The notes under the pieces are model-generated. The model made no database searches, was not told the origin of the DNA, and was given only the letters and a program-made list of their open reading frames with translations. Shown here one piece after another: positions 26,555-47,849 of a DNA stretch of 64,000 nt. The position numbers and the translations under genes are program-made. The stretch comes from an uncultured bacterium (GTDB taxonomy: Bacteria; Patescibacteriota; Patescibacteriia; SG8-24; DYFX01), in assembly GCA_937900255.1 (NCBI GenBank), contig CALCDZ010000002.1, forward strand, positions 9,655 through 73,654, given 5' to 3'. Position 1 is the first letter of the stretch. Each line of letters opens with the position of its first letter.

Positions 26555-26562
26555 CAGATCGC

Positions 26563-26592
26563 CAGAGGCCTCAAGGCCTCTTTTTATCCTCG
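26563..26592 (+). terminator. Rho-independent terminator
   Basis: AGAGGCC-tcaa-GGCCTCT followed by TTTTTAT. Confidence 0.7.
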
Positions 26593-26640
26593 GCTCGAAG
26601 CTTGAAGGGTGTCGTCGTACCAGGTAAGCTTTGCTGGTCT

Positions 26641-28035: not shown

Positions 28036-30242
28036 AGCCGTTGGACAAGTTCCTGCTCTACGTCGTCCGCTACGGCCTATTCGCGGTCTTCGCGCTGCCT
28101 TTCGTGGTCTGGTTGAGTCACCTGTACCCATGGGTGACCGGTAAGGTCTTCAGTTTCGTGATCCTCGTCGAAGTCCTGTTTCCTGCCTACGTCTTGCTGG
28201 CACTGCGCCGCCGGGAGTTCCGCCCTTCCAGGAATCCGCTTCTTTACGCGCTTCTTGCCTACTTCGCGGTAGAGACGCTTTCGATGCTCCTGGGCGATAA
28301 TGCGCATCGCAGTCTCTGGTCGAAACCGGATCGGCTGACGGGCCTGTTCTTCCAGTATCACCTCCTCGCGTTCTTCCTCATGGCCGGAGCCGTCTGGCGG
28401 AAGGTGATGGTCCAGCCGATCGTCGCGTCGATCGTCACCGCCGTCCTCCTTTCGCTCCAGGCGCTCCACCAGGTCTTCTCGCCTGCGCCCGGGTCCGACG
28501 GTCGTGGCTCGGCGACGCTCGGTAATCCGGATTATCTCGGACAATATCTCGTGCCGCACCTGTTCCTGTGCGGCTGGTTGATCCGGCGGCACTGGAAGAC
28601 GTCGCTGCGATGGCTGTGGACGGGCGCCGGCGCGCTTATCCTGGCAGGCATCGTCTCCGCCCAATCGAAAGGTGCGCTTGTCGGCGTCGCGATCGGCATC
28701 CTGGTCGGAGCGCTTGTCCTGATTTTCCGATCGACCGGCATGGTCCGGAAGGCAGGACTCGCCGGCATGGGGGTGCTGGCGCTTGCCGTCGCGGGCTTCT
28801 TCATCGGCCAGAAGATCCGGCCGGTCAACGTCTGGTTGTATGATCATCGTTTCTCCATCCAGTATCTCCAGGAAACGACGGGGTCCCGGCGGCTGCTCCT
28901 GCAGAACGCCTTGAAAGGCATCGGCCAGCGCCCGATCCTGGGCTGGGGTCCGGAGAATTTCGAGGACGGTTTCTATTTCAACTACGACCCGCACACCCTG
29001 AAGTTCTCGGATTACGAGACCCGTCAGGATCGGCCGCATAACCTGGTGCTGGAACTCCTGCACAACCTTGGCGCGATCGGTTTCCTCGCGTATGCGCTCG
29101 TCCTCGTCTCCGCCGCGCGCCTGGCCCTGAAGAAAGGACGTCCGGAAATGGCGGCAGGCGTCATCCTGATCGTGGCTGCCGTCTCGCAGGTCGCCACCGA
29201 TCTCTTCATCTTCGAGACGCCGATGTCGTATATGGCGCTCTTCCTCATGTTCTCGCTGATCGCGGCCGATGCGGGAGAACGGGAGGCGTGGGAAGAAGGC
29301 GGCGATGAGACTTCCGCCGCATCCGTACCGCTCTTCGTCCTGGCCGCGGCGCTTTCGGGCTGGTGCCTGATCGGCATCGTGTCCGGCACGATCGCTTCCA
29401 CGCGCCTGACGGCTTCGATGATCGTCGGCCTGCAGGCGCAGGGGGCCTCCGACCAGGACAAGGCCGATCAGCTGAAGGCGGAACTGTCCGGCCTCCGCAA
29501 GCTGAAGACGCCTTACTATGAACGCGACATCCGCGCGCTCAGTTCGCATCTCAGCCGCGCTCGCGGCGAATATCTGGAAGGTCCCCTCAAGCCGATCCTG
29601 ATCGAGACGGCGGAGGAGGAATACGGGCTGCTTCAGCGCAACCGCACGGATTACGTGCACGCGCTCGTCACGGCCGTGGCCTACCTGAGCTTCCATCCGC
29701 GCACGGACGCGCAGCAGGCCGCGCTTGAGGATTCCGCGTCGCTTGCATCCAAGCTTTCCCCGAACCGCCAGGAGGTCGAGGAGATCCTGGCCCAGATCGC
29801 TTGGGAAAAAGGCGACCTTCCCGCATCCGAGGCGCATATCCGCCGGATCAAGGATCTCGACCCCGAACTGCCGATCGGCGACGCCTGGCGGATCAGGTGG
29901 CAACTGGAGTTCGGCGATCCCAAAGAGGCCGTCAAGGCGCTTTCGGGGCGACCAGAAATCGCGCAGGATACGACGGCATGGAATCAGGTCGAATACGGCA
30001 CGCTTCATCTGCTCACGCAGAAGCGTTGGCAAAGCCTTGCGGCATTGCAAGAGGCGTCCGCAGCCGCCGGGGTGCGCAACGTCCAGTGGGACCTGACCGG
30101 TGCGATCGCCTATTGGGCGGAAGGCCAGAAGACCAAGAGCGATGCGCTCATCGCCGAGTGCCGGAAGCGCTATCCGGACAAGCTTGACCTGATCACTTCG
30201 ATCGAGACGAATCGAGCCCAAATCGTCGCGACCGGCGCATGA
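28032..30242 (+). CDS. O-antigen ligase/polymerase-like (Wzy_C) membrane protein with C-terminal TPR-like domain
   Basis: About 12 TM N-terminal half, then a large TM-flanked loop, and a soluble alpha-helical repeat C-terminus. ATGA overlap with murC. Confidence 0.75.
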   Translation: MKPLDKFLLYVVRYGLFAVFALPFVVWLSHLYPWVTGKVFSFVILVEVLFPAYVLLALRRREFRPSRNPLLYALLAYFAVETLSMLLGDNAHRSLWSKPDRLTGLFFQYHLLAFFLMAGAVWRKVMVQPIVASIVTAVLLSLQALHQVFSPAPGSDGRGSATLGNPDYLGQYLVPHLFLCGWLIRRHWKTSLRWLWTGAGALILAGIVSAQSKGALVGVAIGILVGALVLIFRSTGMVRKAGLAGMGVLALAVAGFFIGQKIRPVNVWLYDHRFSIQYLQETTGSRRLLLQNALKGIGQRPILGWGPENFEDGFYFNYDPHTLKFSDYETRQDRPHNLVLELLHNLGAIGFLAYALVLVSAARLALKKGRPEMAAGVILIVAAVSQVATDLFIFETPMSYMALFLMFSLIAADAGEREAWEEGGDETSAASVPLFVLAAALSGWCLIGIVSGTIASTRLTASMIVGLQAQGASDQDKADQLKAELSGLRKLKTPYYERDIRALSSHLSRARGEYLEGPLKPILIETAEEEYGLLQRNRTDYVHALVTAVAYLSFHPRTDAQQAALEDSASLASKLSPNRQEVEEILAQIAWEKGDLPASEAHIRRIKDLDPELPIGDAWRIRWQLEFGDPKEAVKALSGRPEIAQDTTAWNQVEYGTLHLLTQKRWQSLAALQEASAAAGVRNVQWDLTGAIAYWAEGQKTKSDALIAECRKRYPDKLDLITSIETNRAQIVATGA

Positions 30243-31383
30243 GGTCCTGGTAGAGCTCCAGGGTGCTCGCGACCATGGATGAACCGGAGCGGCGTTCCGC
30301 GATGCGCGGGGCGCCGCTTTTCAGTTTTTGGGACAGGTCCTGACCGGCCAGGACGGAACGGATGGCGGAGACGAGCCTTTCGCGGTCGGCGGGCGGTATG
30401 AGAAGCCCCGTTTCCCCGTCCTCGATCAGTTCCGGCAGCGCGCCGACGCGGGTGGCGATGATCGGCACGCCGGCGAGCGAGGCTTCCAGGATCGCCCATG
30501 GCAAGCCTTCTTTCGTGGAGGGGAGGATGAAGAGGTCGAACGCCTTGAGTAGCCGGGCGGCGTCGGGCAGGGCGCCAGGCAGGCAGATGCGCGCGCGGTG
30601 GGCGAGGCCGGAACGGCGCGCCAGGAGTTCCGGCATCTTCGGGCCGTCTCCGATGACGACGAGATCGACATCAGGAAATTCTCCGGCGACCGCGTCGAAC
30701 GCTTCGAGCAGCATCGGAAGATTCTTTGCGGGATAGCTGTTGGCGATCGTGCCGATGATCCGTTCGAAGGCCGGCACCCCGCAAGCCTTGGAAAGTTCCG
30801 TAAGCGCGGCATCCCGTCCAAGGAAGGCGATCTCGTCCGGATCGATGCCGAGCGGAATGAGGTGCAGTCGAGCCGGAACGGAAAGATCCTTGTCCAGCGC
30901 GACGGCGCGTTCGGTCTCGGTCAATACGATGGTAGCGGAGCGCCAGAGCGACGCCAGCTTTTCGCTCGCGAGCATGAGCAGTCGGAACGGGAAAGGTCTC
31001 CGCTCCAAGAAACCCCAGCCATGGGCGGTGAAGATCAGGGCGGGACGTCGCTTCGAGAGCCGGACGGCCAAGGCTGCGATCAGGCCGGCCTTGCTGCTGT
31101 TGGAGTGAATCAGGGCGTACCCCTCCCGATCGATCATCTTTCGGACGGCGTTGACCGCTTTCAGGTCGTTCCATGGCGAGATCGGGCGGCGCAACGCCGG
31201 AATCTCGAAGGTCCGGATGCCGTTCGGAAGCGCCTTGAAAAGCTCGGATCGCGCAGAGGATCCGGCTGCGACCGTCACGTCGAATCCGGAACGCGCGGCG
31301 GCGGCCAGGCGCGCGACATAGCGCTCGGCGCCTCCCCAGGCCGAGGAGGTGATGAGATACAGGAGTTTCGGCTTGGCATCCAT
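30193..31383 (-). CDS. Glycosyltransferase family 4
   Basis: 396 aa GT-B. KLLYLITSSAWGGAERYV N-terminus and EGLPWAILEASLAGVPIIAT C-domain. Confidence 0.8.
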   Translation of the reverse strand: MDAKPKLLYLITSSAWGGAERYVARLAAAARSGFDVTVAAGSSARSELFKALPNGIRTFEIPALRRPISPWNDLKAVNAVRKMIDREGYALIHSNSSKAGLIAALAVRLSKRRPALIFTAHGWGFLERRPFPFRLLMLASEKLASLWRSATIVLTETERAVALDKDLSVPARLHLIPLGIDPDEIAFLGRDAALTELSKACGVPAFERIIGTIANSYPAKNLPMLLEAFDAVAGEFPDVDLVVIGDGPKMPELLARRSGLAHRARICLPGALPDAARLLKAFDLFILPSTKEGLPWAILEASLAGVPIIATRVGALPELIEDGETGLLIPPADRERLVSAIRSVLAGQDLSQKLKSGAPRIAERRSGSSMVASTLELYQDLMRRSRRFGLDSSRSK

Positions 31384-31424: not shown

Positions 31425-33650
31425 ATGAAAGTCGTCTTCGCCACCGGAATCTTCCCGCCCGACATCGGCGGACCGGCCGCCTCGGTCCCGTTGTTGGCGG
31501 AAGCTTGGAGCGCTCGCGGGCATGAAGTGACGGTCGTGACGTATGCGGACGCGCCGTCGGTCGCCGGAAACGATCCCGCTTATCGCGTCGTCAGGATTTC
31601 CCGCACGCTTCCGGTTTGGAGGCGGTACCCCGCGTTTTTCATGGCGTTGTGGCGCGCCTCGGCAGGGCCTGGCTCGATCTTCGCCCAGGACGGCGTCGCT
31701 TCCGGGGTGCCGGCGTTGATCGTCTCCCGTCTGCGCCGTCGGCGCCTGATCGTCAGGATCGCCGGAGATTTCGCGTGGGAGCGCGCGCAGGTGGCGCATG
31801 GGTACCGGGAATCGCTTGAGACGTTCCAGCGGGACCGGCGGCTCCCGCTCGGTCTCAGGGTCATCCGAGCGCTACAGCGTTCCGTCTTCCGGCACGCTCA
31901 CCTCGCGGTCGCGCCGAGCCGCTATCTTGCGGATGTGCTGCGCGGTTGGGGGGTGGGCGAGAACCGGATCCGCGTCATCCACAACGGGGTCGTCCTGCCG
32001 GACGTCATCCCTGCACACGGCACTCATCCTCGACGCATCGTCGCGTCCGCCCGGCTCGTGCCATGGAAGAACATCGACGTGCTCATCAAGGCGATGCCGG
32101 GCGTCCTGGCACGCGTGCCGGACGCGACCCTGCTGATCGTCGGAGACGGACCGGAACGGGAACGCCTCGAGGCACTCTCCGCGGCGCCGATGCTGAAAGG
32201 GAAGGTTTCCTTCGCCGGACGGATGGAGCGGAAGGATCTTCTTACGATCATCGCCGAAAGCGCGGTCTTCGCTTTGCCGAGTTCCTACGAGGGCTTTTCT
32301 CACCAGTTGGTGGAGGCGTTCGCCTGCGGAGCCGCCGTCGTCGCCAGCCGCGCCGGCGGCAATACGGAACTGGTCGCGGATGGCAAGAACGGTCTTTTGG
32401 TCGAACCTGGCGACGTCGTCGGGCTCTCGAAGGCCCTCATCCGCTTCCTTGAGGAGCCGGCTTTCGCTGAAGCCTGCGGACGGGAAGCGGCGAAGGGGCT
32501 TGCCGGTTTTACGGTCGATACGCAAATCGCCCGGACGACCGAGGCGGTCTTGGGCCGGCCCGGATTGCGCGTGGTGCTCGTGAGCCGCGACGGCACGGCG
32601 GCGGATCCTTCTTCGCGGACGGCGGCGCGCATGCGCGCCTATGGGGAGCGGGTCGACTTCCTGCATGTGGTCTGTCTCGCGAGACAGGAGCCGTCCTCCA
32701 TGCGGCTTTCGCCGCGCGTGCAGGTGGATGTCGTGGATGCGCGCACGGCGCTCCGTCATCCTTTGGCGCTGACCGGCGCCGTGAAAGATGCCGCCATTGC
32801 CTCGCAAGCGTCGCTCGTCGTCGCGCAGGACCCGTTCGAGGCCGGCGTATCCGCAGCTGCGGCCGCTTGGTCCGTCGGCGTGCCGCTCCTCGTCGAGGAG
32901 CATGGCGGCGTCTACCTTTCCCCGCATTGGAGACGGGAAAAGATCAAACATCGTCTGCTGCATCCGCTGGGACTCCTGGTCATGGGCCGCGCGGCCGGCC
33001 TGCGCGCCGTGAGCGCCAAGATCGAGGCCGACCTGCGCCGTCGCTGGCCGAAGATGCCGATCGCGCGCATCCCCGTCTATACCGAGCCGATCGCGTGCTA
33101 TCGCGAAGGCGCGCCGTACGTCTTCGGATACGTCGGGCGCTTCGTGCCGCAGAAAAAACTTGAGATGCTCCTTTCGGCTTTCGCTTCCGTCGTCCGTACC
33201 CGTCCAGAAGCGCGCCTTCTCATGGTCGGCGCCGGTCCTTCGGAAGCGGCATTGCGCGCCGAAGCGGAAGCGCTCGGTATCGGCGATCATGTGACGTGGC
33301 GGCCGTACAGCGAGCGCATCGTCGACGTCTTCAAGGAAATCGGCACCTTGGTCCTCTCGTCCCGGTACGAGGGCTGGGCGCGCGTCGTGCCTGAGGCGAT
33401 GTCCTGCGGCATTCCCGTGGTGATGACGGACGTCGGCTGCGCCGGCGAACTCCTGCGTAACGGCGTCGAAGGCTACGTGACCCCGATCGACGACGCGGGC
33501 ATCTTGGCTCAAGCCATGCTCAAGATCTCCGATCCGCACCAGCATGCGCTCATGAGCGCGGCCGCCAGGCGCCGCTCGGAAACTTCCGCGACGCCCGAAG
33601 ACCTGGCCGGGCGCCTCATCGGTTTCTGGAAGGAGGTGGCTGGCCTATGA
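31425..33650 (+). CDS. Tandem double GT4 glycosyltransferase (two GT-B modules fused)
   Basis: 741 aa. Two E-x7-E-type C-domains (EGFSHQLVEAFACGAAVV and EGWARVVPEAMSCGIPVV). Confidence 0.75.
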   Translation: MKVVFATGIFPPDIGGPAASVPLLAEAWSARGHEVTVVTYADAPSVAGNDPAYRVVRISRTLPVWRRYPAFFMALWRASAGPGSIFAQDGVASGVPALIVSRLRRRRLIVRIAGDFAWERAQVAHGYRESLETFQRDRRLPLGLRVIRALQRSVFRHAHLAVAPSRYLADVLRGWGVGENRIRVIHNGVVLPDVIPAHGTHPRRIVASARLVPWKNIDVLIKAMPGVLARVPDATLLIVGDGPERERLEALSAAPMLKGKVSFAGRMERKDLLTIIAESAVFALPSSYEGFSHQLVEAFACGAAVVASRAGGNTELVADGKNGLLVEPGDVVGLSKALIRFLEEPAFAEACGREAAKGLAGFTVDTQIARTTEAVLGRPGLRVVLVSRDGTAADPSSRTAARMRAYGERVDFLHVVCLARQEPSSMRLSPRVQVDVVDARTALRHPLALTGAVKDAAIASQASLVVAQDPFEAGVSAAAAAWSVGVPLLVEEHGGVYLSPHWRREKIKHRLLHPLGLLVMGRAAGLRAVSAKIEADLRRRWPKMPIARIPVYTEPIACYREGAPYVFGYVGRFVPQKKLEMLLSAFASVVRTRPEARLLMVGAGPSEAALRAEAEALGIGDHVTWRPYSERIVDVFKEIGTLVLSSRYEGWARVVPEAMSCGIPVVMTDVGCAGELLRNGVEGYVTPIDDAGILAQAMLKISDPHQHALMSAAARRRSETSATPEDLAGRLIGFWKEVAGL

Positions 33651-34693
33651 GGATACTCGTCGTCACGCAGGCCGTCGACGCGGATTCCTCCACGCTCGGC
33701 TTTTTCGTGGAATGGCTCCGCGAGTTTTCGGGGCGCTGCGAGCGCGTGGACGTCATCGCGCTTTCGGTCGGACGGCATGACTTGCCCGCGAACGTCCGCG
33801 TCGTCTCGATGGGTAAGGAACGTGGCATCGGCAGGCTGGGACGCCTGCTGGCATATTGGAGGCATCTTCTGAAGCTCTTGCCGGAAACGGACGGTGTCTT
33901 CATCCATATGTGCCCGGAGTACCTGCTCGCAGGATGGCCGCTTCTCGTTTTCAGGCGCTTGCCGACCGTATTTTGGTACGCGCATCGTTCCAGGAACCTT
34001 CTCGCACGCGCGGCGATGCCGCTCGCCACCCATCTGGCGACGAGCGTTCCCGGAGCCGTCACGCTTGCTGCGGCCAACATCCGGTTCCTTGGGCAGGGGA
34101 TACCGACGGAGCTGTTCCGTCCGCTCCCGCTCCTCGTCGGGTCTCCGTTCAGGCTCGTGGTCGTGGGCCGCATCACGCCTATCAAGCGGCTCGATCTGCT
34201 GATCGACGCCCTGGCCCTTTTGCGGGGGCGCGGCATCGACGCTGCGCTCGAGTTCTGGGGAGAGCCGGCCGCGGCAGGCGACGCGGCCTATGCCGTTTCG
34301 TTGCGGGAAAGGGCCGTAGCCGCGTCGGTTTCTGGAAGAGTGCGCTTCCTCGGGAGAGTGCCGTTCGCGCGTATGCCGGAAAAATACGGCGGGGTTTCCG
34401 TCGCCTGGAACGCCTGCGCGGATGGTGCCGTCGACAAGGCCGTGCTTGAAGCCATGGCTTGCGCCAGGCCGGTCGTGGTGACGAATCACGTCTTTTCCGG
34501 CACGTTCGGACCGGATGCGGATGCATGTCTGGCCGACGGGACGGCGGAGTCCATCGCGGAAAAAACGGCGAAGATCCTGTCGGGCCCCGGCGGGCTGGCG
34601 CTTGGACTTCGCCTGCGCGAGACGGTCGTGGCCCATCATGGCCTTCCTGGCCTCGTGAACGGCATCATCGATCTGATGGACTCCAAGCGTTAA
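33647..34693 (+). CDS. Glycosyltransferase family 4
   Basis: 348 aa. MRILVVTQAVD N-terminus. 4-nt overlap with the upstream gene. Confidence 0.75.
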   Translation: MRILVVTQAVDADSSTLGFFVEWLREFSGRCERVDVIALSVGRHDLPANVRVVSMGKERGIGRLGRLLAYWRHLLKLLPETDGVFIHMCPEYLLAGWPLLVFRRLPTVFWYAHRSRNLLARAAMPLATHLATSVPGAVTLAAANIRFLGQGIPTELFRPLPLLVGSPFRLVVVGRITPIKRLDLLIDALALLRGRGIDAALEFWGEPAAAGDAAYAVSLRERAVAASVSGRVRFLGRVPFARMPEKYGGVSVAWNACADGAVDKAVLEAMACARPVVVTNHVFSGTFGPDADACLADGTAESIAEKTAKILSGPGGLALGLRLRETVVAHHGLPGLVNGIIDLMDSKR

Positions 34694-35460
34694 CGGCGCA
34701 GAAGGATCCTCCACGGCAACAGGGCGGATTCCAGGATGACGGCCTTGCTGATTTTTGATGTGCCGTGCGTCCGATCCTTGAAGGTGATAGGGAGTTCCTT
34801 CGGCACATATCCTGCCAGCACGGCGGCGAGCTTCGTTTCGACCGCGAAGGCGTATCCGTCGGATTTCGGGTCGGCGGCCATGACCCGTTCAAGCGCGTTC
34901 CGGCTCCAGGCGGCGAAACCGGAGGTGGCGTCATGGATGCGGAACCTGGGATGACGAAGCCTGATGATGGCGCTCGCGTAGAGATTGGCCCAACGGCTCA
35001 GAAGACGCCGGTGCAACGGCCAATCCCGACATGCACCGCCGGAGACGTAGCGCGAACCGATGGCGAATCCCGACTCACGTGCCATCGCCGTCAGCGCTGG
35101 GACCTTTTCCGGTCCGTGGGAGAAGTCGGCGTCCATGCTGACGACTACGTCGTAGCCCGTCTCATGTCTCAATATCCATCGGAAGGCGTCGGTATAGGCC
35201 GTGCCCAGGCCTAATTTCCTCGGACGACGCATCAGCAGGACGCGCATCGGAGCCGAGGAAGCGGCGATTTTTGCGGCCTCGGCCGTGCCGTCAGGGCTGC
35301 CGTCATCGACGATGAGGAGGTCGGCCTCGCTCCGCAGTCCGATCGCTTCGATGAATGCGCGAATGTCCTGGCGCTCGTTGTAGGTAGGCACGACGATAAG
35401 CGCCCTGCCGGCAGAGCGATCGTTCAGCCCTTCCACGGAGATGATACGTTCGGAAATCAT
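34690..35460 (-). CDS. GT2 polyprenyl-phosphate sugar synthase (ArnC/GtrB/DPM1-like)
   Basis: LIVVPTYNERQDI...LIVDDGSPDGT...VVSMDADFSHGP (DXD). True start is ATG 35460, overlapping the stop of the upstream GT-C gene. The 633-aa ORF 34690..36591 is rejected as a single gene. Confidence 0.75.
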   Translation of the reverse strand: MISERIISVEGLNDRSAGRALIVVPTYNERQDIRAFIEAIGLRSEADLLIVDDGSPDGTAEAAKIAASSAPMRVLLMRRPRKLGLGTAYTDAFRWILRHETGYDVVVSMDADFSHGPEKVPALTAMARESGFAIGSRYVSGGACRDWPLHRRLLSRWANLYASAIIRLRHPRFRIHDATSGFAAWSRNALERVMAADPKSDGYAFAVETKLAAVLAGYVPKELPITFKDRTHGTSKISKAVILESALLPWRILLRR

Positions 35461-36833
35461 TCGTGCGGAACGTTTTTCTTCGTGCTCCAGGCATCCGATA
35501 GGCGCCAGAAAGCGGAAGCGGCCATGACGGCCATGATCGAATCGAACGGGACGCGATATTTCGTGCCGGGAGTGGTGATGACGTAGGTCAGCGTGAAGGC
35601 CAGCGCCAGAGCGATGAACAAGACCGTCCGCTTGCGCTCCTCCCTGGATTCCAGCGCGACTTCGAGCAGCGAGAGCGTCAGCAGGAACCCGTAGCTCAGC
35701 GCGTAGCCCCAATTCATGAAGCTGTCCGAAAGGATGACGGCACCGTTGCCGCCGACCGCTCCCTTGGGCGGATACATCCATGGGTGCCACAGCAGGAGGA
35801 ACTTCATCCCGAAGAGCCCAGGCAGTTCGGGGGCGTGGGCGCGCATCCAGCCGCGCGCCTTGGCGTACCAGAAGCGGTCCGCTTCCGGTTCGCTGCGGCC
35901 TTGCATGAAGGCACAACCGGATTTCCGGACGCCATCCATCGGCGTCGGGATGCCGTCGGCCGGTTCGGGGGTGGCGTCGATCCAAAGGTCGTTCAGCAGC
36001 ATCCGCATCGCGAGTGGGTTGTAGTCCTTGTGGAAGACGCGGCCTCCATCGGTCGTGAGCGGGACGAACGCGCGGTGGACCGCATAGTTCCGGATGACCC
36101 AGGGCGTCATGACGAGCAGCGCCGAGATCCCCATGACGCATGAGAAGCGAAGCGCTTTCCTGAAGGAGCCCCAGCGCCACCAGAGCCATACGGAGGCCAG
36201 GGGTGCGAAAAAGACCATCGGACCGCTGGTCGCGAGCATCGCCAGGCCGATCCAGAGGCCGTTCAACGCCGCGGTGCCGGTTTTCGGCACGCGTTCCAGG
36301 CGGAGGAGCCCCAGCGTCGCGAGCAGCATCAGGAACGTGAACAGGAAGGTGATGTAGAACTGGGTGTCGTGGTAGAGGTTGTACGGATAGACGGCCATGA
36401 ACAGCGCGCCGAGGAGGCCGACGCGCTTGGAGCGCCATTCCTTGCCGATCAGGTAGACCAGCCAGATGCTGGACAGACCGATCGCCATCTGCGCCAAGCC
36501 GAGCGGCCAGGCATAGCGCGTCGTGCCGAAGACGGCGTAGAAGGGGATGAGGAACAGGATGTAGAGCGGCGCGCGGTACGAGGTCGGGCAATCCCTGGCG
36601 ATGCCCATGCCGTGGCCGGCGACGAAGTTCATCGCTGGGTAGGCGAAGCCCTTCTCGATGCGCGTGGTCAGCTCAGAGTGGAAGGCGAAGAGGAATCCGA
36701 GCCGCAGGATGAGCGCGAGCCCGAGGATGGCGAACAATAGGATATCGGCGTTCCGCTCGACCCGTTCTCCGATCGGCGTATGGCCGTCGCGCATGTCCCT
36801 CCATGCCTCCTGAAGTTTGAGCAGGGGGTGCAT
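35457..36833 (-). CDS. GT-C membrane glycosyltransferase (ArnT/PMT-like, GT39/GT83)
   Basis: 458 aa with about 11 TM. N-terminal first-loop acidic region, typical of ArnT/Pmt. Coupled by ATGA overlap to the GT2 synthase. Confidence 0.75.
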   Translation of the reverse strand: MHPLLKLQEAWRDMRDGHTPIGERVERNADILLFAILGLALILRLGFLFAFHSELTTRIEKGFAYPAMNFVAGHGMGIARDCPTSYRAPLYILFLIPFYAVFGTTRYAWPLGLAQMAIGLSSIWLVYLIGKEWRSKRVGLLGALFMAVYPYNLYHDTQFYITFLFTFLMLLATLGLLRLERVPKTGTAALNGLWIGLAMLATSGPMVFFAPLASVWLWWRWGSFRKALRFSCVMGISALLVMTPWVIRNYAVHRAFVPLTTDGGRVFHKDYNPLAMRMLLNDLWIDATPEPADGIPTPMDGVRKSGCAFMQGRSEPEADRFWYAKARGWMRAHAPELPGLFGMKFLLLWHPWMYPPKGAVGGNGAVILSDSFMNWGYALSYGFLLTLSLLEVALESREERKRTVLFIALALAFTLTYVITTPGTKYRVPFDSIMAVMAASAFWRLSDAWSTKKNVPHE

Positions 36834-36903
36834 ATATCAGCATGAGTATATCGGAACAAGTGCGGCTTCGCAACGCCGGAAGACCTGGTATACTGGAGCC
36901 GTT

Positions 36904-37632
36904 ATGCGGAAAATCCTTCGGGAAGCACGGGCGAAAGCGAGGCTTCTCATGGGCGGCAGCCGGTGCCGTCCGACCATCCTCATGTACCACTCGGTCGGCC
37001 GCAACGCCGCCCACTTCAACGTCACCCCCGAGGCTTTCCGCGCCCAAATGGCCTTCCTGAAAGAGCGCGGCTTCGAGGTCGTCACGCTCGACGAGTGCGT
37101 CCGCCGGGCCATGGCGGGGGAGACGGGCAAGATCGTCGCCCTGACCTTCGACGATGGGTATGCGGATTTCCCGAAGGAAGCTTGGCCCGTGCTGAAGCTA
37201 TACGGATATCCGGCCGTCGTTTTCCTGATCACGGGCCTCATGGGCGGGGGCTACACGACTTCGACAGGCGTCACGATCCCGCTCATGACTTGGGACGTGG
37301 CGGAATTCCTGAAAAAGGAGGGCGTCTCCTTTGGGTCGCATACCGTGACGCATGCCGAACTCGACACGCTTGCCGGCGAGGATGTCGCGAAGCAGTTGGT
37401 CGAATCGCGTGTCGATCTGCGCGAACATCTGGATGTGGAAGCGCGCTGGCTGTGCTATCCGCGCGGCAAAGAGTCGCCTGCCGTCCGCGAATCGGCCAGG
37501 TCGGCTGGGTATGTCGGCGCGGTCACGGTCAAGGCGGGGCATCCGGCTCCCGACACCGATACCTACGGCCTTCCTCGCGCGTATGTGCATTCCGAAATGG
37601 GGATGAAAGAATTTGAGGCGTTGTTCGTATGA
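36904..37632 (+). CDS. Polysaccharide deacetylase (NodB homology domain; ArnD/PgdA-like)
   Basis: TFDDGY...HTVTHAELDTL NodB motifs. Start at MRKILRE. Confidence 0.8.
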   Translation: MRKILREARAKARLLMGGSRCRPTILMYHSVGRNAAHFNVTPEAFRAQMAFLKERGFEVVTLDECVRRAMAGETGKIVALTFDDGYADFPKEAWPVLKLYGYPAVVFLITGLMGGGYTTSTGVTIPLMTWDVAEFLKKEGVSFGSHTVTHAELDTLAGEDVAKQLVESRVDLREHLDVEARWLCYPRGKESPAVRESARSAGYVGAVTVKAGHPAPDTDTYGLPRAYVHSEMGMKEFEALFV

Positions 37633-38234
37633 AGACCGTTTACCGGCGCCTGATGAACGCGCGCCTGAGGCCGATCTTGGCGGGCCTGCGCGGCAGGGTA
37701 CTCGACCTGGCTTCCGGCGCGGCGCCTTCTTATCGGGCGTTTTTCAATCCGAGAGCGGAAGCGGTCAATGGCGACGTGAGCGAAGACCAAGGCGTCGAGC
37801 GTATCGATTTCGATGCGCTGCTGCCGTTCGCGGACGCGTCTTTCGACCATGCTCTCTGCATCAATGCGCTGTATATCGCCAAGTACCCGGGTTTTACGCT
37901 TGGGGAACTGCGGCGCGTCACACGTGCCGGCGGGACGCTCACGGTCGCGGTGCCGTTCGTCTTTCCGGAAGCGCCCGAACCGCACGACTACGCCCGTTGG
38001 ACATCGGAAGGTTTGAGGTCATTGCTGGTCGCTGCGGGCTTCCATGACGTGGCGATAGTCCCGTTCGGCGGGCATTTCACCTCCGCCCTGTTCATCGTCG
38101 AGCCGTTCATGGTCTTCCGGCCGCTGAAATTCCTGGCGCAGGAATCCGCCCTGTTGCTGGACCGCCTCGTCCCGGCGCGCTACCGTGCGGCCAGGCCGTG
38201 CCCGCTCGGGTACGTCGCCATCGCGAAACGCTGA
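37629..38234 (+). CDS. Class I SAM-dependent methyltransferase (Methyltransf_11-like)
   Basis: VLDLASGAA motif I. 201 aa. 4-nt overlap with the deacetylase. Confidence 0.7.
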   Translation: MKTVYRRLMNARLRPILAGLRGRVLDLASGAAPSYRAFFNPRAEAVNGDVSEDQGVERIDFDALLPFADASFDHALCINALYIAKYPGFTLGELRRVTRAGGTLTVAVPFVFPEAPEPHDYARWTSEGLRSLLVAAGFHDVAIVPFGGHFTSALFIVEPFMVFRPLKFLAQESALLLDRLVPARYRAARPCPLGYVAIAKR

Positions 38235-38236
38235 CT

Positions 38237-38899
38237 ATGACAGACACGATCGAAGGGCTCTTCCAGGAAGGATACTGGGGCTCATGGGACCAAATCGAGA
38301 CGTTCCGGCACCGTGCCGCCGCGCGCCTCGTGCGCCAAGGTCCTGTGCTTGACGTCGGTGCCGGCGACGGCTTCTTTCTCGGCTTGCTGAAGAAGGAACG
38401 CGGCATCGAAGGCAGAGGCATCGATCTCTCCGCGGTGGCCGTCGAGAAAGCCGCAAAGAAAGGGATCGATGTGCGGGTGGCGGACCTCTCGCGCGAAAAA
38501 CTGCCGTTCACCGACGGTTCATCCGCGACGGTCGTCCTGCTCGACGTCCTCGAACATTTTTTCCGGCCTGAACAGCTCCTGGCGGAAGTCGCGCGCGTGA
38601 CCTCCTCGGACCTCGTCGTCTCGGTGCCGAACTTCTCCTCGCTCCCTGCGCGCCTGCAGGTCCTGCGTGGCCGTGTGCCGGAAAACAATACTCCGCGCAA
38701 AGGGCATGTCTATTGGTTCACATGGGGGAAATTGAGGAAGATGCTCGATGACTCCGGTTTCGAAGTCATCGACGCGCGTTTCAACGCGAATTTCGAACGG
38801 CTCCCGTTCGTTGGCGGGGTGTTCCGACAGCTGGCCGCCCGCTTTCCGTCCCTCTTCGCCCTTTCATTCGTGGTCTTGGCACGCAAGCGGGCCGTATGA
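38237..38899 (+). CDS. SAM-dependent methyltransferase (MetW-like)
   Basis: VLDVGAGDGFF motif I, and LLDVLEHF. Start at MTDTIEG, right after the preceding stop. Confidence 0.65.
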   Translation: MTDTIEGLFQEGYWGSWDQIETFRHRAAARLVRQGPVLDVGAGDGFFLGLLKKERGIEGRGIDLSAVAVEKAAKKGIDVRVADLSREKLPFTDGSSATVVLLDVLEHFFRPEQLLAEVARVTSSDLVVSVPNFSSLPARLQVLRGRVPENNTPRKGHVYWFTWGKLRKMLDDSGFEVIDARFNANFERLPFVGGVFRQLAARFPSLFALSFVVLARKRAV

Positions 38900-41196
38900 G
38901 ACTCGTCTACATCGCCAACGTCCGTTTGCCGACCGAAAAGGCGCACGGCGTGCAGATCATGCAGATGTGCGCGGCCTTCGCGTCGAACGGGCATGAGGTC
39001 ATGCTGATCGTGCCTGGGCGCCGTAATGCCATCGCGGCGACTCCGTGGGAGTACTATGGTCTCAAACGGAACTTCCGGATCGTGACGGTACCGGTCCTCG
39101 ACTTCATCCCGTTCGATCGCTGGCTCGGCAACGCTGCGTTGTGGTTGACGACCGTCGGATTCGCCTTCGGCGCGCGTAGGGTCGTTGCGGACGCGCGGCC
39201 TGATGCCGTCTACTCGCGGGACGCCGTCCTCGTGACGACCGTGCCGAAGGGCGTGCCCTTCGTCTTTGAAGCGCACGATTTTCCGACGAGGCCCTGGCTC
39301 TATCGGTTCCTATGGAAGGCGTGCTCCCGTATCGTCACCGTGACGGAAGGGCTGAAGCGCGCTTTCATCGCCGCCGGAGTGCCCGAGACCAAGCTGGTCG
39401 TCGCGCATGACGCCGTCGATCCAGGTATTTTTCAGGTATCGGAAAGCAAGGCGGAGGCGCGGCGCGCGCTTGGGCTGCCCACCGAGGGTTTCATCGCCGT
39501 CTACTCCGGCCATCTCTATCCTTACAAGGGGGCCGACGATCTGCTCGAAGCCTGTCTGCATCTGCGCCCAGCTTCGCGAGTGGTCTTCGTCGGTGGACGC
39601 CCTGAAGAAGTCGCCAGGCTGCGGATGCAGGCCGAAAAGCTCGGTGTCACGAACGCCTTTTTTGTCGGGCAAGTGCCTCACGGACTCATCCCGATGTATC
39701 TGCGGGCCGCCGATGGGGCCGTCCTGCCGACGCGTGATACGGATCGGCATGCGTCCGAATTCCTCTCGCCTCTCAAGCTGTTCGAGTATCTGGCCGCCGG
39801 GAAAGCCATCGTCGCCACCGACCTGCCATCGATCCGGGAAGTGTTGGACGAGAATACGGCCGTTTTCGTGCCGCCCCGGTCGCCGGAGGCTTTGGCCGCC
39901 GCCCTGAACGGCCTGGCGGACGTTCCCGTTGAAGCCGAACGCCTGTCTCGGGAAGCGGAAGCCCTGTCGAGGGACTGCACGTGGGTCCATCGCGCTGGAC
40001 GCGTGCTTTCGGGAACGGACGAACCGCAGCCCTCGCTGACCTGGCTGCGGCGGCATCGCGCCGTGCTGGCCTGCATGCTCTTGGCGTTCATCCTGCGCGC
40101 CGCGTATGTCCTCGCGTTCCCGCTGAGACTGGCAGGAGGCGATGGCGAACTGTACGTCGGGTATGCCGACCTCCTCCGCGGGATTCCGGCTTGGTCGCCG
40201 CGCATGTACGCCTACTTCCAGCCCGGCTACCCGATCTTTCTCGCGGTCATCCGTAGCTTGTTCGGTACCGACCTTGTCGCCGTCGGCCTGTCTCAGGCCG
40301 TCATTTCCGCGCTCACGGTCGGCCTCGTGACGGCCATGACGCGGAAACTGGTCGGGGCGCGCGCGGCCGTTTTTGCCGGGCTCATGTCGGCCGTCTCCGC
40401 TTCCTCCATCGTCGAGACCGGGCAGATCTATACCGAAACGCTGTATACGTTCCTGTTGACCGCCGCCGTCTGCGCGCTCCTCGTGGATGCGCACCATCGC
40501 GCCATGCGTCATGCCGCCATCGTCGGTGCATCGTTCGCGCTCGCCGGCTTCGTCCGCGAACTCGCTCTGTATCACGCTGCCCTTCTTGCCGCCGTGACCG
40601 GCATCGGCAAGCGGTCGTGGCGGCCGGTCGTCGGCATCATGGCGCCCGTCGTCGTCATGCTTCTCGTTTTTGGCGCGTATAACCGTACGGTCGCCGCCGG
40701 GCAGGCGGTTCCGCGCGTGCCGATCCTCGCGAAGGGATATGAGGCTACGCTTCAGGACCCGGCTTCGCAGGCCTTCCTCCTGCGCTGGCGGATGTATCCG
40801 CTCGGCCTCTGGTATTTCTTCCGCTATCCGCATCGGTTCGCCGACATCAGCGACCAGGTCTCGACGCGGCAGGCGCTCTTTTCCGGAGACGCCGCCTTGA
40901 TCGGCAGGGAAGCGCCGTACATCCTGGCGAAGGGTCTGCTGACGCTCCTGCATTGGATGATACTGGTCTTGGCGGCCTATGGTCTTTGGCGCGGACGGAT
41001 GCCGCGCGAGGCGAAGATCGTCATCTCCGTGACGATCGCCTTCGCGGCTGCTACGATAACGCTTTCCGGGGCAGCGCGGCTTCAAGGCTTCGAATACCTG
41101 GAGCCGTTGGCCCGTTATCGTTTCCCGGTCGAACCGCTCATCATGATCCTGGCGGCGGCGGGGGCCGAACGCTTCTTAAAGAACGAGACGACGTAA
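38896..41196 (+). CDS. Fusion protein: GT4 glycosyltransferase (GT-B) + polytopic GT-C (PMT_2/ArnT-like) domain
   Basis: 766 aa. Residues about 1-370 form a GT-B (EFLSPLKLFEYLAAGKAIVAT). Residues about 380-766 have 10 or more TM helices (RRHRAVLACMLLAFILRAAYVLAFPL...). Confidence 0.7.
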   Translation: MRLVYIANVRLPTEKAHGVQIMQMCAAFASNGHEVMLIVPGRRNAIAATPWEYYGLKRNFRIVTVPVLDFIPFDRWLGNAALWLTTVGFAFGARRVVADARPDAVYSRDAVLVTTVPKGVPFVFEAHDFPTRPWLYRFLWKACSRIVTVTEGLKRAFIAAGVPETKLVVAHDAVDPGIFQVSESKAEARRALGLPTEGFIAVYSGHLYPYKGADDLLEACLHLRPASRVVFVGGRPEEVARLRMQAEKLGVTNAFFVGQVPHGLIPMYLRAADGAVLPTRDTDRHASEFLSPLKLFEYLAAGKAIVATDLPSIREVLDENTAVFVPPRSPEALAAALNGLADVPVEAERLSREAEALSRDCTWVHRAGRVLSGTDEPQPSLTWLRRHRAVLACMLLAFILRAAYVLAFPLRLAGGDGELYVGYADLLRGIPAWSPRMYAYFQPGYPIFLAVIRSLFGTDLVAVGLSQAVISALTVGLVTAMTRKLVGARAAVFAGLMSAVSASSIVETGQIYTETLYTFLLTAAVCALLVDAHHRAMRHAAIVGASFALAGFVRELALYHAALLAAVTGIGKRSWRPVVGIMAPVVVMLLVFGAYNRTVAAGQAVPRVPILAKGYEATLQDPASQAFLLRWRMYPLGLWYFFRYPHRFADISDQVSTRQALFSGDAALIGREAPYILAKGLLTLLHWMILVLAAYGLWRGRMPREAKIVISVTIAFAAATITLSGAARLQGFEYLEPLARYRFPVEPLIMILAAAGAERFLKNETT

Positions 41197-41228
41197 ACGC
41201 GGCTGCGTCGATAACCTATGGCATTCGT

Positions 41229-41972
41229 ATGAAAGAGGCGATATTTTACGACGATTCGTACTTCCAGGCATTGGAGAATCGTTACTTCTTAGGGGCGCAT
41301 GGTGAACGCGTCAGGGATATCGTGTCTTTCCTCCCATCCAGGAAACACGTCCTTGATTATGGTGCCGGCAGCGGTTACTTCGCATTCCGCGCTCTACAGC
41401 TTGAAAATACCGTCGTTGCGTTCGATTTTGCGCCGGCGGCAGTGCAATACATGCGGTCGCACTATCCGACGCTTGAAATCGTCGAACGGAAGGATGCCTT
41501 GAAGGGGGTGTATGACACGATTCTTCTGAACGACGTGATCGAGCACGTCGACTACTCTGAGCAGGCTTCTTTCATCTCCAATCTCCGGGAGCACTTGAAA
41601 GCAGGCGGTCGATTGATTGTCGCGACCGATAATTTTGACTCGTTCTTCTTCAGGGGCCGTCTCGGTAAAAAATGTCTAGCGATCGATCAGCGCATTTCTC
41701 CAGAAGGCATCATTTATAGGGCCATTAAAAAGGGTGAGACGGAACGTCCTTATTACCACAATGCCTATAATGATTCCCATGTCGGATTACTTGGGCGCGA
41801 CAAATTGGTTCGACTTTTCAAGAGCCAAGGCTTTGAGCTCGTTCGCGAAAAGCACGGTTTTCTCTTTCGTACTTACGTTTCCCGCCTTATCAGCGCATGT
41901 TTTGGGCTCAGGCCACTGCATTCCGTCTATGAGTTCACTTTGATGGCAGAGACCCTCCCGCGTTCAAGGTAG
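41229..41972 (+). CDS. Class I SAM-dependent methyltransferase
   Basis: VLDYGAGSGYFA motif I, and LLNDVIEHV. Local GC is about 50%, lower than the neighbours. Confidence 0.65.
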   Translation: MKEAIFYDDSYFQALENRYFLGAHGERVRDIVSFLPSRKHVLDYGAGSGYFAFRALQLENTVVAFDFAPAAVQYMRSHYPTLEIVERKDALKGVYDTILLNDVIEHVDYSEQASFISNLREHLKAGGRLIVATDNFDSFFFRGRLGKKCLAIDQRISPEGIIYRAIKKGETERPYYHNAYNDSHVGLLGRDKLVRLFKSQGFELVREKHGFLFRTYVSRLISACFGLRPLHSVYEFTLMAETLPRSR

Positions 41973-43257
41973 GCGACGCGTTTTTCGAGGCCTCAGGTTC
42001 CACGTTTAAGATTTTTCGGACAAGAAGCGTTGAATGAAGAAGCCCGAAGATACGAGCGAGGGTTCTTGCGCAGATCGCGCCGAGCAGCCCCCATTTCCAG
42101 ACAAAAAGTGCAAGAGACACGATGCTGATCGCAGACATCGAAACCTGGTAGTGGAGGTTCTCCTTATATCTCATGTGTCCATTGAAGACCGCTACCGGGA
42201 GCGCGGAGGCGATGCCGAGCAGTGATATGGAGAAGATCTGTGAATATGGTATGGCTTCGGCGTACCCGGGAAAAAGCTGCCGATAAATCTGTGGAGCCAC
42301 TAGGACGTAAACGATGATGACGCTGCCGATGGCGGCGATCAACAGGAAGAGTTTTCGGAAGAAAGTCGGCCGTATTTCATTGAGCGGTCGCGCAGCGACT
42401 TTTGGGAGCGCCATCACGTACAGGTTTTTCAGATAGCCTTTGAGCTGCTCTGGCGGAGCGATGGCAAAAGCGTAGACGGCCGTCTCGTGGGAACCGAGCA
42501 GTGTGAAGATCAGGATACGGTCGAGATAATTGGAGATCGAAGAGGCGACATCCAGGAGCGTCAGATTCTTGCCGAAGCGGAGCGCATCGTCCGAAGCCTC
42601 GCCCTTCGGCGGCAGGCGCCGCAGCGTGGCGCCGAGCGCGATGGCGTTCCAGGCCAGCGAGGAAAGGCAGAACCCGAGCGTCAGCGCGATGACCGTCGGG
42701 TGCAGGAGCAGGATCGCGACGACGACGGCGGCCGTTCCGAGCGTCGAAGCGATCCCGTAGCGCGTCTGCAATCCGAAGGCTTTCCGGCCGTTGGCATAAT
42801 CGCCCCAAGAGGAGAGCGCCGAGATGGCGGGAAAAAAGACGGCGACGATCAGGAAGCCCCAGAAGAGATCCGTGCGTCCTTTCGAGAGGTAATATGCGCC
42901 GACCGCGAGTCCGCCCAAGGTGCCGATGCCGGCCCACCGCAGGCGCATCTTCAGGACCGCGTAGATCGTCCTTTCATGGCCTTGCGCGACGGCGCGCGTC
43001 AAAGCATCGGACGTTCCCGTGACGGATGCGATGGCGAGGATCGATCCCCAGGAGAGCAGGTACTGATACGTGCCGTAGACGCCCTTGCCGAGCAAGCGGG
43101 CGAACAGCATCGCCAGGGCCAAGCTCGAGGCCGAACCCATGAACGACGCGATCGACAGGAAAATCCCGCCCTTCGCCAGATAGACGTTGTCGGTACCGGT
43201 ATAGCGTTCTCCTCGGCGCAGGAGGCGGATCGCCAGGAGTTTCAGTCGCTGGAGCAT
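41935..43257 (-). CDS. wzx: Wzx-type polysaccharide flippase (MOP/PST family)
   Basis: 440 aa, 12-14 TM. N-terminus ...GIFLSIASFMGSASSLALAMLFARLLGKGVYGTYQYL is typical of Wzx/RfbX. Confidence 0.8.
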   Translation of the reverse strand: MLQRLKLLAIRLLRRGERYTGTDNVYLAKGGIFLSIASFMGSASSLALAMLFARLLGKGVYGTYQYLLSWGSILAIASVTGTSDALTRAVAQGHERTIYAVLKMRLRWAGIGTLGGLAVGAYYLSKGRTDLFWGFLIVAVFFPAISALSSWGDYANGRKAFGLQTRYGIASTLGTAAVVVAILLLHPTVIALTLGFCLSSLAWNAIALGATLRRLPPKGEASDDALRFGKNLTLLDVASSISNYLDRILIFTLLGSHETAVYAFAIAPPEQLKGYLKNLYVMALPKVAARPLNEIRPTFFRKLFLLIAAIGSVIIVYVLVAPQIYRQLFPGYAEAIPYSQIFSISLLGIASALPVAVFNGHMRYKENLHYQVSMSAISIVSLALFVWKWGLLGAICARTLARIFGLLHSTLLVRKILNVEPEASKNASPTLNAGGSLPSK

Positions 43258-44575: not shown

Positions 44576-44628
44576 AAGACTAGCCTATAATGGACGTTTC
44601 CGCTATGCTTGACCGGTATCATCGTCGT

Positions 44629-46921: not shown

Positions 46922-47849
46922 GGAAGGCGAACCGCTCGCCAAGCACGTCAACATCCGGATCGGCGGACTTGCCGACCTTTACTTCGAGGCGAAAACCTCT
47001 GAGGAGATCGCGCGCGCCATCGAAGCCGCTTTCGCGGACGGCGTCCCGTTCGTCGTCATCGGCGGCGGATCGAACAGCCTGCCGAGCGACGAGGGTTTCC
47101 GCGGGCTGGTCATCCAGGCGGCCAACCGGGGCTGGAGCGTCGAAGGGGATCGCGTCCGCGCCGAGGCCGGCACGCTTTCCGGCTTCCTCGCCCGCAAGAC
47201 GGCGGAAGCCGGACTGACCGGTCTCGAGTGGGCCGTTTCCTTGCCGGGCACGATCGGTGGCGCCGTGCGCGGGAATGCCGGATGCTTCGGCGGGGAAACG
47301 AAGGACGCGGTCGCTTCCGTGGAAGTCCTTCGCCTGCGTGACGGTAAGATTGAGCGCCGCACGTACGCGCCGGAGGAGTGCGCGTTCGGGTACAGGGATT
47401 CCGTCTTCAAAAGGAATTCCGACGTCATCCTCGCCGTCGAGTTCCGCCTGGCGCGCGATGCCAAGGAAGCGTGCCTGGAGAAGATCGACGCCGTGCTTTC
47501 GAAGCGCAAGGCCGAACAGCCGAACGGAAACCCCTCGGCCGGCTGCATGTTCAAGAATTTCGGCTTCGCGGACGAAGGCGCGATCGCCAAGCTGAAAGCG
47601 CGGCTGGAAGTTCCCGCTCCGTTCCTTGCCGCCAAGCGCATCCCGGCAGGCTGGCTGATCGATCAGGTCGACCTGAAAGGAAAGACGATCGGCGGCGCGC
47701 AGGTCTCCCCGAAGCACGGTAATTTCCTGGTGAATCTCGGCGATGCCACCGCTTCCGACGTGCTGCAGCTCATTTCGCTCGTGAAGATGAAGGTCCGTGA
47801 CGAATACGGGATCCAATTGGAGGAAGAGGTGCAGATGCTCGGGTTCTGA
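46884..47849 (+). CDS. murB: UDP-N-acetylenolpyruvoylglucosamine reductase
   Basis: FAD-binding VVIGGGSNSL and a MurB C-terminal domain. 321 aa. Confidence 0.85.
   Translation: MSILRQALGERLKEGEPLAKHVNIRIGGLADLYFEAKTSEEIARAIEAAFADGVPFVVIGGGSNSLPSDEGFRGLVIQAANRGWSVEGDRVRAEAGTLSGFLARKTAEAGLTGLEWAVSLPGTIGGAVRGNAGCFGGETKDAVASVEVLRLRDGKIERRTYAPEECAFGYRDSVFKRNSDVILAVEFRLARDAKEACLEKIDAVLSKRKAEQPNGNPSAGCMFKNFGFADEGAIAKLKARLEVPAPFLAAKRIPAGWLIDQVDLKGKTIGGAQVSPKHGNFLVNLGDATASDVLQLISLVKMKVRDEYGIQLEEEVQMLGF

Follow-up and report, generated by a model that had tools for sequence, protein, structure and literature searches.

An outer-face glycosylation pair and a deacetylase-methyltransferase cassette as probable separate units of a Wzx/Wzy-type polysaccharide cluster in an uncultured Patescibacteriota bacterium

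Two adjacent gene units in a polysaccharide cluster

We examined a 64-kb stretch of DNA from an uncultured bacterium of the Patescibacteriota (assembly GCA_937900255.1, contig CALCDZ010000002.1, positions 9,655 to 73,654; GC ~63%), hereafter the window, in which three adjacent genes encode a family 2 glycosyltransferase (GT2), a membrane transferase of the GT-C superfamily, and a NodB-type de-N-acetylase of carbohydrate esterase family 4 (CE4). The initial annotation had read these genes as one triad resembling ArnC, ArnT, and ArnD of the lipid A aminoarabinose pathway. Our analyses favor, with somewhat better than even confidence, two separate units within a Wzx/Wzy-type polysaccharide cluster, namely a Gtr-like module of GT2 and GT-C that would attach side chains at the outer face of the membrane, and a cytoplasmic sugar-tailoring cassette composed of NodB and a methyltransferase that depends on S-adenosylmethionine (SAM).

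The high GC content makes spurious open reading frames (ORFs) common in the window; the ORFs of GT2, GT-C, and NodB have third-position GC values of 0.75-0.87, as in coding sequence, and their domain matches are far above chance level. The GT2 gene (34690..35460, minus strand, 256 aa) matches PF00535 (E 4e-23), the GT-C gene (35457..36833, minus strand, 458 aa) matches PMT_2 (PF13231, E 1.8e-7, 31.9 bits against a cut-off of 26.1), and the NodB gene (36904..37632, plus strand, 242 aa), the first of its operon, matches PF01522 (E 3.3e-25). The tetranucleotide ATGA at 35457-35460 joins the TGA stop of the GT-C gene with the ATG of the GT2 gene, so that the two genes overlap. The GT-C and NodB operons diverge from an intergenic spacer of 70 bp (36834..36903), in which one sigma-70-like match was found on each strand (36873->36845 on the minus strand and 36867->36894 on the plus strand; two against 0.5 expected from shuffles), both being pattern matches only. 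In a public collection the start of NodB lies 15 codons further downstream, giving a protein of 227 aa. The initial annotation was correct on the three ORFs and their families, on the coupling by ATGA, and on the divergent layout, as judged by coordinates, Pfam matches, and third-position GC.

GT2 resembles Ppm1/DPM1-type synthases

The GT2 is a Ppm1/DPM1-type enzyme, predicted to be a polyprenyl-phosphate hexose synthase with mannose as the probable sugar. Its closest solved structure is the dolichol-phosphate mannose synthase (DPMS) of Pyrococcus furiosus, PfDPMS (5mlz; E 4.8e-28, 101 bits), and the alignment (residues 19-246) spans the whole catalytic and interface-helix region. ArnC matched at E 5.5e-9 over the N-terminal half only. 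The top NCBIfam models, AglJ, PpgS, ArnC, and the dolichol-phosphate hexose transferase model, all describe polyprenyl-phosphate-sugar synthases and all remained far under their cut-offs; ArnC and PpgS gave 38-43 bits against cut-offs of 529 and 370, respectively. As the ArnC equivalog model (NF007986) reached just 38 of the 529 bits and again covered the N-terminal half, the protein does not belong to ArnC. Two C-terminal transmembrane helices are expected of ArnC, and none is present in the GT2; a hydrophobicity scan of the protein revealed no transmembrane or hydrophobic segment at all. Homologues of ~235-270 aa number in the thousands; at 44-50% identity, their sources give them the names polyprenol monophosphomannose synthase (NCBI) or DPM1/dolichol-phosphate mannosyltransferase (JGI). 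Thus, the GT2 groups with polyprenyl-phosphate-sugar synthases and does not fall among the non-polyprenyl GT2 enzymes, an outcome that the initial annotation had considered fatal to its proposal, while the ArnC-like identity proposed there gives way to a Ppm1/DPM1-like one that is distinct from both ArnC and PpgS.

The active site was analyzed by comparing the PfDPMS alignment with the published PfDPMS residues, and invariance was judged across eight orthologues. Residues E12, D39, D89, D91, H94, R117, R131, S135, R202, and K208 (PfDPMS numbering) are kept and invariant in all eight. The DXD (DAD) motif DADFSH aligns with 89-DADLQH-94 of PfDPMS and is invariant in 7/8 orthologues, whereas R137, R151, S155, R230, and K236 of the GT2, which correspond to R117, R131, S135, R202, and K208 of PfDPMS, are invariant in all of them. 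According to the PfDPMS paper, R117, R131, and S135 are acceptor-phosphate residues conserved among bona fide DPMS enzymes, and R202 and K208 belong to the A-loop. The same paper reports that PfDPMS truncated of its transmembrane domain is still active and membrane-targeted, which makes a GT2 enzyme lacking such a domain plausible. The product is likely a hexose without an acetamido group, as indicated by the NCBIfam models, the solved structures, and the named homologues.

Two forms of association with methyltransferases were also seen among the GT2 genes of related loci (introduced below). In one locus, a single protein of 556 aa (L012:3859-5529) combines a Ppm1-type GT2 with a SAM methyltransferase domain, and in L011 and L002 the genes of the GT2 and of a methyltransferase overlap. 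These arrangements hint at methylation of the lipid-linked sugar or of the transferred residue.

GT-C is a compact transferase with no special closeness to ArnT

No sequence-level match to the GT-C protein was found among solved structures, even when a family profile was used. An AlphaFold2 model (pLDDT 88.5, pTM 0.90), for which 21 homologues were used, confirms, at the level of prediction, a multi-transmembrane GT-C superfamily fold with an acidic first outer loop, where E54 and E60 are each Asp or Glu in 19 of the 21 sequences. The modeled protein is compact, with short outer loops and without a large outer domain, and structurally resembles ALG12, ALG3, ALG9, GPI-MT-I, and PimE. By this model it is no nearer to ArnT than it is to other GT-C families, and it is not a member of the ArnT family (GT83). 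ALG12, ALG3, ALG9, and GPI-MT have been described as compact enzymes that depend on dolichol-phosphate mannose and work on lipid-linked glycans. The marks of Pmt/GT39 enzymes that were searched for in the protein (PF02366, PMT_4TMC, MIR, and the large loop-5 domain) are all missing, PF13231 being the sole Pfam match, and its 458 aa are much shorter than Pmt enzymes. The family profile retrieved ~86,000 cluster representatives (8,719 at E <= 1e-30), making the small PMT_2 proteins, to which this one belongs, a very large group. Families, folds, and active-site residues together give good support to the general proposal of the initial annotation, that the GT2 makes a polyprenyl-phosphate sugar and that GT-C transfers it on the outer face.

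NodB belongs to the PgaB/IcaB/PplD subgroup and is coupled to a methyltransferase

The catalytic set of NodB is complete, comprising TFDDG, H-x3-H, and the N-terminal YH, and H29, D83, D84, H146, and H150 are invariant among 26 homologues; loss of the catalytic Asp/His residues, named in the initial annotation as a reason to discard its model, is therefore not observed. We take H29 to be the acid, as the presumed equivalent of H55 in PgaB. The solved sequence relatives are PplD (6dq3, E 2.5e-16), IcaB, and PgaB. Of these, PgaB and IcaB work outside the cytoplasm. PplD (6dq3) is reported to act extracellularly, removing N-acetyl groups from the linkage unit of a streptococcal polysaccharide. 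In a Foldseek search with the AlphaFold2 model of NodB (pLDDT 95.9), PplD ranked highest (E 4e-16, TM-score 0.79/0.84) and was followed by PgaB, IcaB, and BpsB, while ArnD (8t0j) appeared at rank 49 with a TM-score of 0.38 and 8% identity. Nor was ArnD among the 26 PDB sequence matches listed at E <= 10. By fold, metal-binding and catalytic residues, and sequence, NodB is assigned to the PgaB/IcaB/PplD subgroup of CE4, and a relationship to ArnD was rejected on both sequence and structure.

A hydrophobicity scan of NodB detected no transmembrane helix or signal peptide with either the long or the short start, and the protein is predicted to be cytoplasmic. Export in the manner of PplD, PgaB, or IcaB was also considered and rejected, as the N-terminus is not hydrophobic in either version of the ORF and orthologous proteins are equally long.

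Directly downstream, and overlapping NodB by ATGA, lies the gene of a SAM methyltransferase (37629..38234, plus strand, 201 aa; PF08241, E 2e-7). Orthologues of this enzyme (53-65% identity) are found directly 3' of NodB in L006, L007, L014, and L015, and an overlapping pair of NodB and a ~203-aa methyltransferase is present in 5/6 loci that contain NodB. The short PF08241 methyltransferases compared from L002 and L004, two loci without NodB, are only 24-31% identical to the partner of NodB.

Distribution of the genes in related loci

About 20 orthologues of GT-C were collected (52-73% identity), 11 distinct loci (labeled L002, L004, and so on) were compared, and the loci were re-checked with custom hidden Markov models (HMMs) on six-frame ORFs. 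GT2 adjoins GT-C in 10/11 loci, mostly with overlapping genes, L009 being the exception. NodB is present in four of the ten evaluable loci (the window, L006, L007, and L011), precisely the ones whose GT-C is most similar (at least 69% identity), and is missing from the other six (L012, L013, L008, L002, L009, and L004). In its place, L002, L008, and L012 contain a set of GFO, hexapeptide-acetyltransferase, and DegT genes, and L004 contains an AsnB-like amidotransferase. Judging from gene content, such interchange of NodB with other gene sets is typical of sugar tailoring that varies between loci.

In a reverse test, two NodB orthologues from other clusters were examined, namely that of L014, which lies on an 823-kb contig and is 59% identical, and that of L015, with 50% identity. 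Both loci lack a GT-C orthologue and a Ppm1-like GT2, and both contain the NodB/methyltransferase pair; hence, the conserved unit is NodB plus methyltransferase and not NodB plus GT2 and GT-C, and the three-gene unit of the initial annotation is not retained. The recurrence of the pair in otherwise different polysaccharide clusters, always with a 4-bp overlap (window 36904-38234, L014:10001-11340, and L015:10001-11316), suggests that it may be a portable tailoring module.

Genes for ATP-grasp/citrate-binding, CoA-ligase, and citrate-synthase-like proteins were observed within the polysaccharide clusters of L008 (8230-11033) and L012 (7977-10753). They resemble ATP-citrate lyase or succinyl-CoA synthetase and sit between GT4 and DegT aminotransferase genes, which is an odd position for them.

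Possible roles of the two units and alternative explanations

The reading that we favor, an outer-face side-chain module next to a cytoplasmic tailoring cassette, is built on gene structure, family and fold assignments, catalytic residues, the absence of export signals, and co-occurrence, from which we infer the sugars, the acceptors, and the order of the reactions. In the first unit, a soluble or peripheral GT2 would work at the cytoplasmic face and charge polyprenyl phosphate with a hexose, for which mannose donated by GDP-mannose is the likeliest candidate. The lipid-linked sugar would then be flipped, and the single Wzx/MATE protein of the cluster (41935-43257) could serve the repeat unit or, as in the Citrobacter youngae system, the donor; at the outer face, GT-C would move the sugar onto the undecaprenyl-diphosphate-linked repeat unit or the growing polymer. 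A GT4-GT-C fusion protein encoded in the neighboring operon would probably use the same donor. This scheme follows the logic of three-component systems, in which a GT2 and a GT-C enzyme have been described in side-chain glycosylation of O antigens and cell-wall polysaccharides. In the second unit, which may be an accessory cassette, NodB would de-N-acetylate an N-acetylhexosamine (HexNAc; derived from N-acetylglucosamine or N-acetylmannosamine) of the lipid-linked oligosaccharide before flipping, and the 201-aa methyltransferase would then act on the deacetylated or a nearby residue. A comparable proposal has been made for HfsH of Caulobacter, a cytosolic deacetylase that would act on lipid-linked precursors.

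Several observations weigh against this reading. The metal-binding Q93 of PfDPMS is replaced by Ser and the sugar-contacting K178 by Ala, invariantly in the GT2 family, and because of these changes the sugar may be other than mannose. The nearest solved relatives of NodB are all extracytoplasmic, which fits a cytoplasmic site poorly. No GtrA, SMR (small multidrug resistance), or second MATE flippase was recognizable in the window in two hydrophobicity scans of all small ORFs. Most of the compared loci are short metagenomic contigs, and where a locus lacks NodB, a deacetylase gene could lie in another part of the genome. In addition, the HMM search found a distant GT-C-like protein of 533 aa (70.6 bits) in L014, ~6 kb from NodB, so that NodB there is without a GT-C orthologue but not without any GT-C-like protein.

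An Arn-like route, or one like that of PpgS and Rv3779, would have the GT2 make polyprenyl-phosphate-HexNAc, NodB de-N-acetylate it at the cytoplasmic face, and GT-C attach the cationic amino sugar so formed to an acceptor in the envelope. Adjacency of the three families around a common 70-bp divergent control region is in keeping with it, and so is NodB itself, whose catalytic residues are intact and whose lack of an export signal fits a step on the cytoplasmic face, where ArnD works. It is also conceivable that NodB was gained as an option in one subclade. PpgS is the second-best NCBIfam model for the GT2 (E 3e-11), and mycobacteria offer a precedent in which PpgS makes polyprenyl-phosphate-N-acetylgalactosamine and the GT-C enzyme Rv3779 uses it as a donor of galactosamine (or N-acetylgalactosamine). 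We nevertheless regard this route as improbable, for the GT2 is far nearer to dolichol-phosphate mannose and Ppm1 synthases, by bit score and by its named homologues, than to ArnC or PpgS; NodB is not ArnD-like, is missing from 6/10 orthologous loci, lies in another operon where it is coupled to a methyltransferase, and occurs as a cassette without orthologues of GT2 and GT-C. Moreover, no equivalents of ArnA, ArnB, or ArnE/F are present in the window, nor are aminotransferase, formyltransferase, or SMR genes, and co-occurrence of the deacylase is not obligatory, so the Arn pathway as a system, and NodB as its middle step, are not upheld. Protein O-mannosylation in the style of actinobacterial Ppm1/Pmt, by which polyprenyl-phosphate-mannose would be used for Ser/Thr residues of secreted proteins, had also been put forward in the initial annotation. 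The half of that suggestion concerning a Ppm1-type donor synthase agrees with the GT2 found here, and the sole Pfam match of GT-C, PMT_2, is PMT-related; the other half fails in that GT-C does not belong to the Pmt/GT39 enzymes. O-mannosylation appears very unlikely, as GT-C lacks the domains that define Pmt and is much shorter than such enzymes, and as the pair is always found inside a polysaccharide cluster, linked to the GT4-GT-C fusion.

The GT-C modules might instead build the main chain or a lipoglycan, as PimE, MptA, or ALG-like enzymes do, extending a backbone or a glycolipid anchor on the outside from polyprenyl-phosphate-hexose. In all lineages, the GT2 and both GT-C modules are part of the conserved cluster core, unlike typical accessory Gtr modules, which makes a backbone role plausible, and the structural resemblance of GT-C to ALG12, ALG3, ALG9, GPI-MT-I, and PimE is in line with it. 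In mycobacteria, polyprenyl-phosphate-mannose made by Ppm1 is known to supply the GT-C enzymes of lipomannan and lipoarabinomannan synthesis. On the other hand, the full Wzx/Wzy set and six cytoplasmic GT4 units would already be enough for a backbone, and GT-C of L009 has no adjoining GT2; we hold this role to be rather unlikely, bearing in mind that backbone and branch are not separable on sequence alone. A more specific possibility, doubtful but worth stating, is that NodB and its methyltransferase act by analogy with NodB/NodS, the one de-N-acetylating a HexNAc of the lipid-linked repeat unit in the cytoplasm and the other N-methylating the amine thus freed, and so yield an N-methylated or cationic amino sugar in a core envelope polymer assembled with two GT-C modules (one fused to GT4), where one Ppm1-type synthase would feed both and the genes would be locked between murC and murB.

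Comparison with known systems

Gtr-type systems, including Salmonella/Shigella Gtr, Klebsiella O2, the Gram-positive CsbB/GtcA/YfhO type, and C. youngae GT136, likewise couple a GT2 synthase genetically to a GT-C enzyme in or next to a Wzx/Wzy locus. They differ from the pair studied here in that GtrB/ArnC-type synthases have two C-terminal transmembrane helices, whereas the present GT2 is of the short Ppm1/DPM1 type without them; that no dedicated flippase gene is recognizable in the window; that a second GT-C module is fused to GT4; and that the module lies in the conserved cluster core and is not a mobile seroconversion add-on. With Ppm1 and its GT-C partners in Corynebacteriales (PimE and MptA/B/C), and with DPM1 and ALG3/9/12, the pair has two points in common: the GT2 carries the DPMS residues for catalysis and for acceptor-phosphate binding, and the compact GT-C is structurally near ALG12, ALG3, ALG9, and PimE. 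In contrast to those systems, there is no partner like Ppm1-D1/Lnt or DPM3 nearby, Q93 and K178 are changed to Ser and Ala, and the context is a Wzx/Wzy repeat-unit cluster, not assembly of phosphatidylinositol mannosides, lipomannan and lipoarabinomannan, or N-glycans.

ArnC, ArnD, and ArnT represent the same superfamilies (GT2, CE4, and GT-C), with a deacylase on the cytoplasmic side and a GT-C enzyme at the outer face, but GT2 and NodB fall well short of the models and structures of ArnC and ArnD, GT-C is no nearer to ArnT than to other families, and NodB does not co-occur with the pair. Like HfsH, NodB has no export signals and lies within a Wzx/Wzy-type cluster, although it hardly resembles the HfsH model (E 2e-5, in an alignment of regions that do not correspond). 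PgaB, IcaB, and PplD are extracytoplasmic, whereas NodB has neither signal peptide nor anchor. In rhizobial Nod-factor synthesis, de-N-acetylation by NodB is followed by SAM-dependent N-methylation by NodS. The CE4 gene of the window similarly precedes a translationally coupled SAM methyltransferase gene, and the pair is conserved; however, the NCBIfam NodB model gave only E 1e-3, the methyltransferase is not detectably NodS, and NodA and NodC are absent.

The GT2/GT-C pair is best read as a common kind of outer-face glycosylation pair and opens no new mechanism. The comparison indicates that adjacency of GT2, CE4, and GT-C genes does not by itself make an Arn-type pathway of cationic modification, and it may be of use in annotating small PMT_2 GT-C proteins and in recognizing variable tailoring modules in polysaccharide loci of uncultured bacteria.

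The surrounding polysaccharide cluster

The GT2, GT-C, and NodB genes are embedded in a ~20-kb Wzx/Wzy-type cluster bounded by murC on the left (26602..28035, plus strand; TIGR01082, 375.8 bits against a cut-off of 335.1) and murB on the right (46884..47849, plus strand; NF010480, 284.9 bits against 259). After murC come a gene for a Wzy_C-family membrane protein of the polymerase/ligase type (28017..30242, plus strand, 741 aa; PF04932, E 7.6e-15; nine hydrophobic segments), a GT4 gene (30193..31383, minus strand; PF13692, E 4.5e-32), a double-GT4 gene whose 741-aa product contains two GT4 units (31425..33650, plus strand; PF00534, E 4.9e-74 in two stretches), and a further GT4 gene (33647..34693, plus strand; PF13692, E 2e-15) that is convergent with GT2 and overlaps it by 4 bp. 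Beyond the NodB cassette lie genes for a MetW-like SAM methyltransferase (38198..38899, plus strand; PF07021, E 1e-20 and PF13489, E 3e-16), the GT4-GT-C fusion (38896..41196, plus strand, 766 aa), and a third SAM methyltransferase (40953..41972, plus strand), for which PF13489 matched residues 119-298 of a long ORF (E 5e-14) and which probably starts near 41200, past the fusion gene. They are followed by genes for the Wzx/MATE-like flippase (41935..43257, minus strand; PF01943, E 2e-12; multiple transmembrane segments), an initiating polyprenyl glycosylphosphotransferase of the exopolysaccharide type (43265..44575, minus strand; PF02397, E 1.6e-66; TIGR03025, 339 bits against 295.6), the non-hydrolyzing UDP-GlcNAc 2-epimerase WecB (44590..45765, plus strand; TIGR00236, 323.7 bits against 210), predicted to supply the glycan with N-acetylated amino sugar, and another GT4 (45587..46921, plus strand; PF00534, E 2e-29). 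Altogether the cluster encodes six GT4 units (three single genes, the double-GT4 gene, and the GT4 part of the fusion) and three SAM methyltransferases.

In the fusion protein, a GT4 part (residues ~1-370; PF00534, E 3e-22) precedes a PMT_2 GT-C-like part (~380-766; PF13231, E 1.5e-7) with six hydrophobic segments in this C-terminal half. The membrane half is 30% identical to the 458-aa GT-C over 93 aa (E 7e-8), as a paralogue might be. Such a polypeptide may glycosylate on both faces of the membrane. The fusion was found in all orthologous loci that cover this area, and its orthologues are ~765-800 aa long (L002:7573-9912, L004:1636-3951, L006:4577-6931, L008:3292-5688, L009:4921-7257, L011:1522-3867, and L012:62-2395).

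The murC gene overlaps the Wzy_C-family gene by 19 bp, and the layout of murC, cluster, and murB (26602-47849 in the window) is kept in L002, L007, and L009. Conservation of this bracketing in relatives suggests a link to cell-wall synthesis. As a dedicated flippase of the GtrA or SMR/ArnEF kind, the sole candidate was a 118-aa ORF with three transmembrane segments (26198-26554), which has no Pfam match and was set aside. It lies in a region (24000-26600) where GC falls to 0.57, together with another ORF without a Pfam match (25441-26190).

Other features of the window

No rRNA, tRNA, or Rfam matches were found in the window. The uvrB, uvrA (862 aa, short), and uvrC (431 aa, short) genes are nearly contiguous at 5946-12343, with only a 153-aa ORF (10590-11051) between them, which is an unusual clustering. 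A type IV coupling protein of the TrwB/TraG type that contains a treble-clef zinc finger is encoded at 59143-61143 (plus strand), near ORFs without Pfam matches (52538-54635 and 57797-59137), and this region may mark the border of a mobile element. Finally, a SecD protein of 689 aa (54733-56802, plus strand) contains a PpiC/parvulin domain (residues 264-375, E 4e-23) between the P1 N-terminal segment and the P1 head. Among the titles and abstracts listed by a literature search, no mention of a SecD-parvulin fusion was found; the search did bring up papers on the association of PpiD-YfgM with SecYEG.

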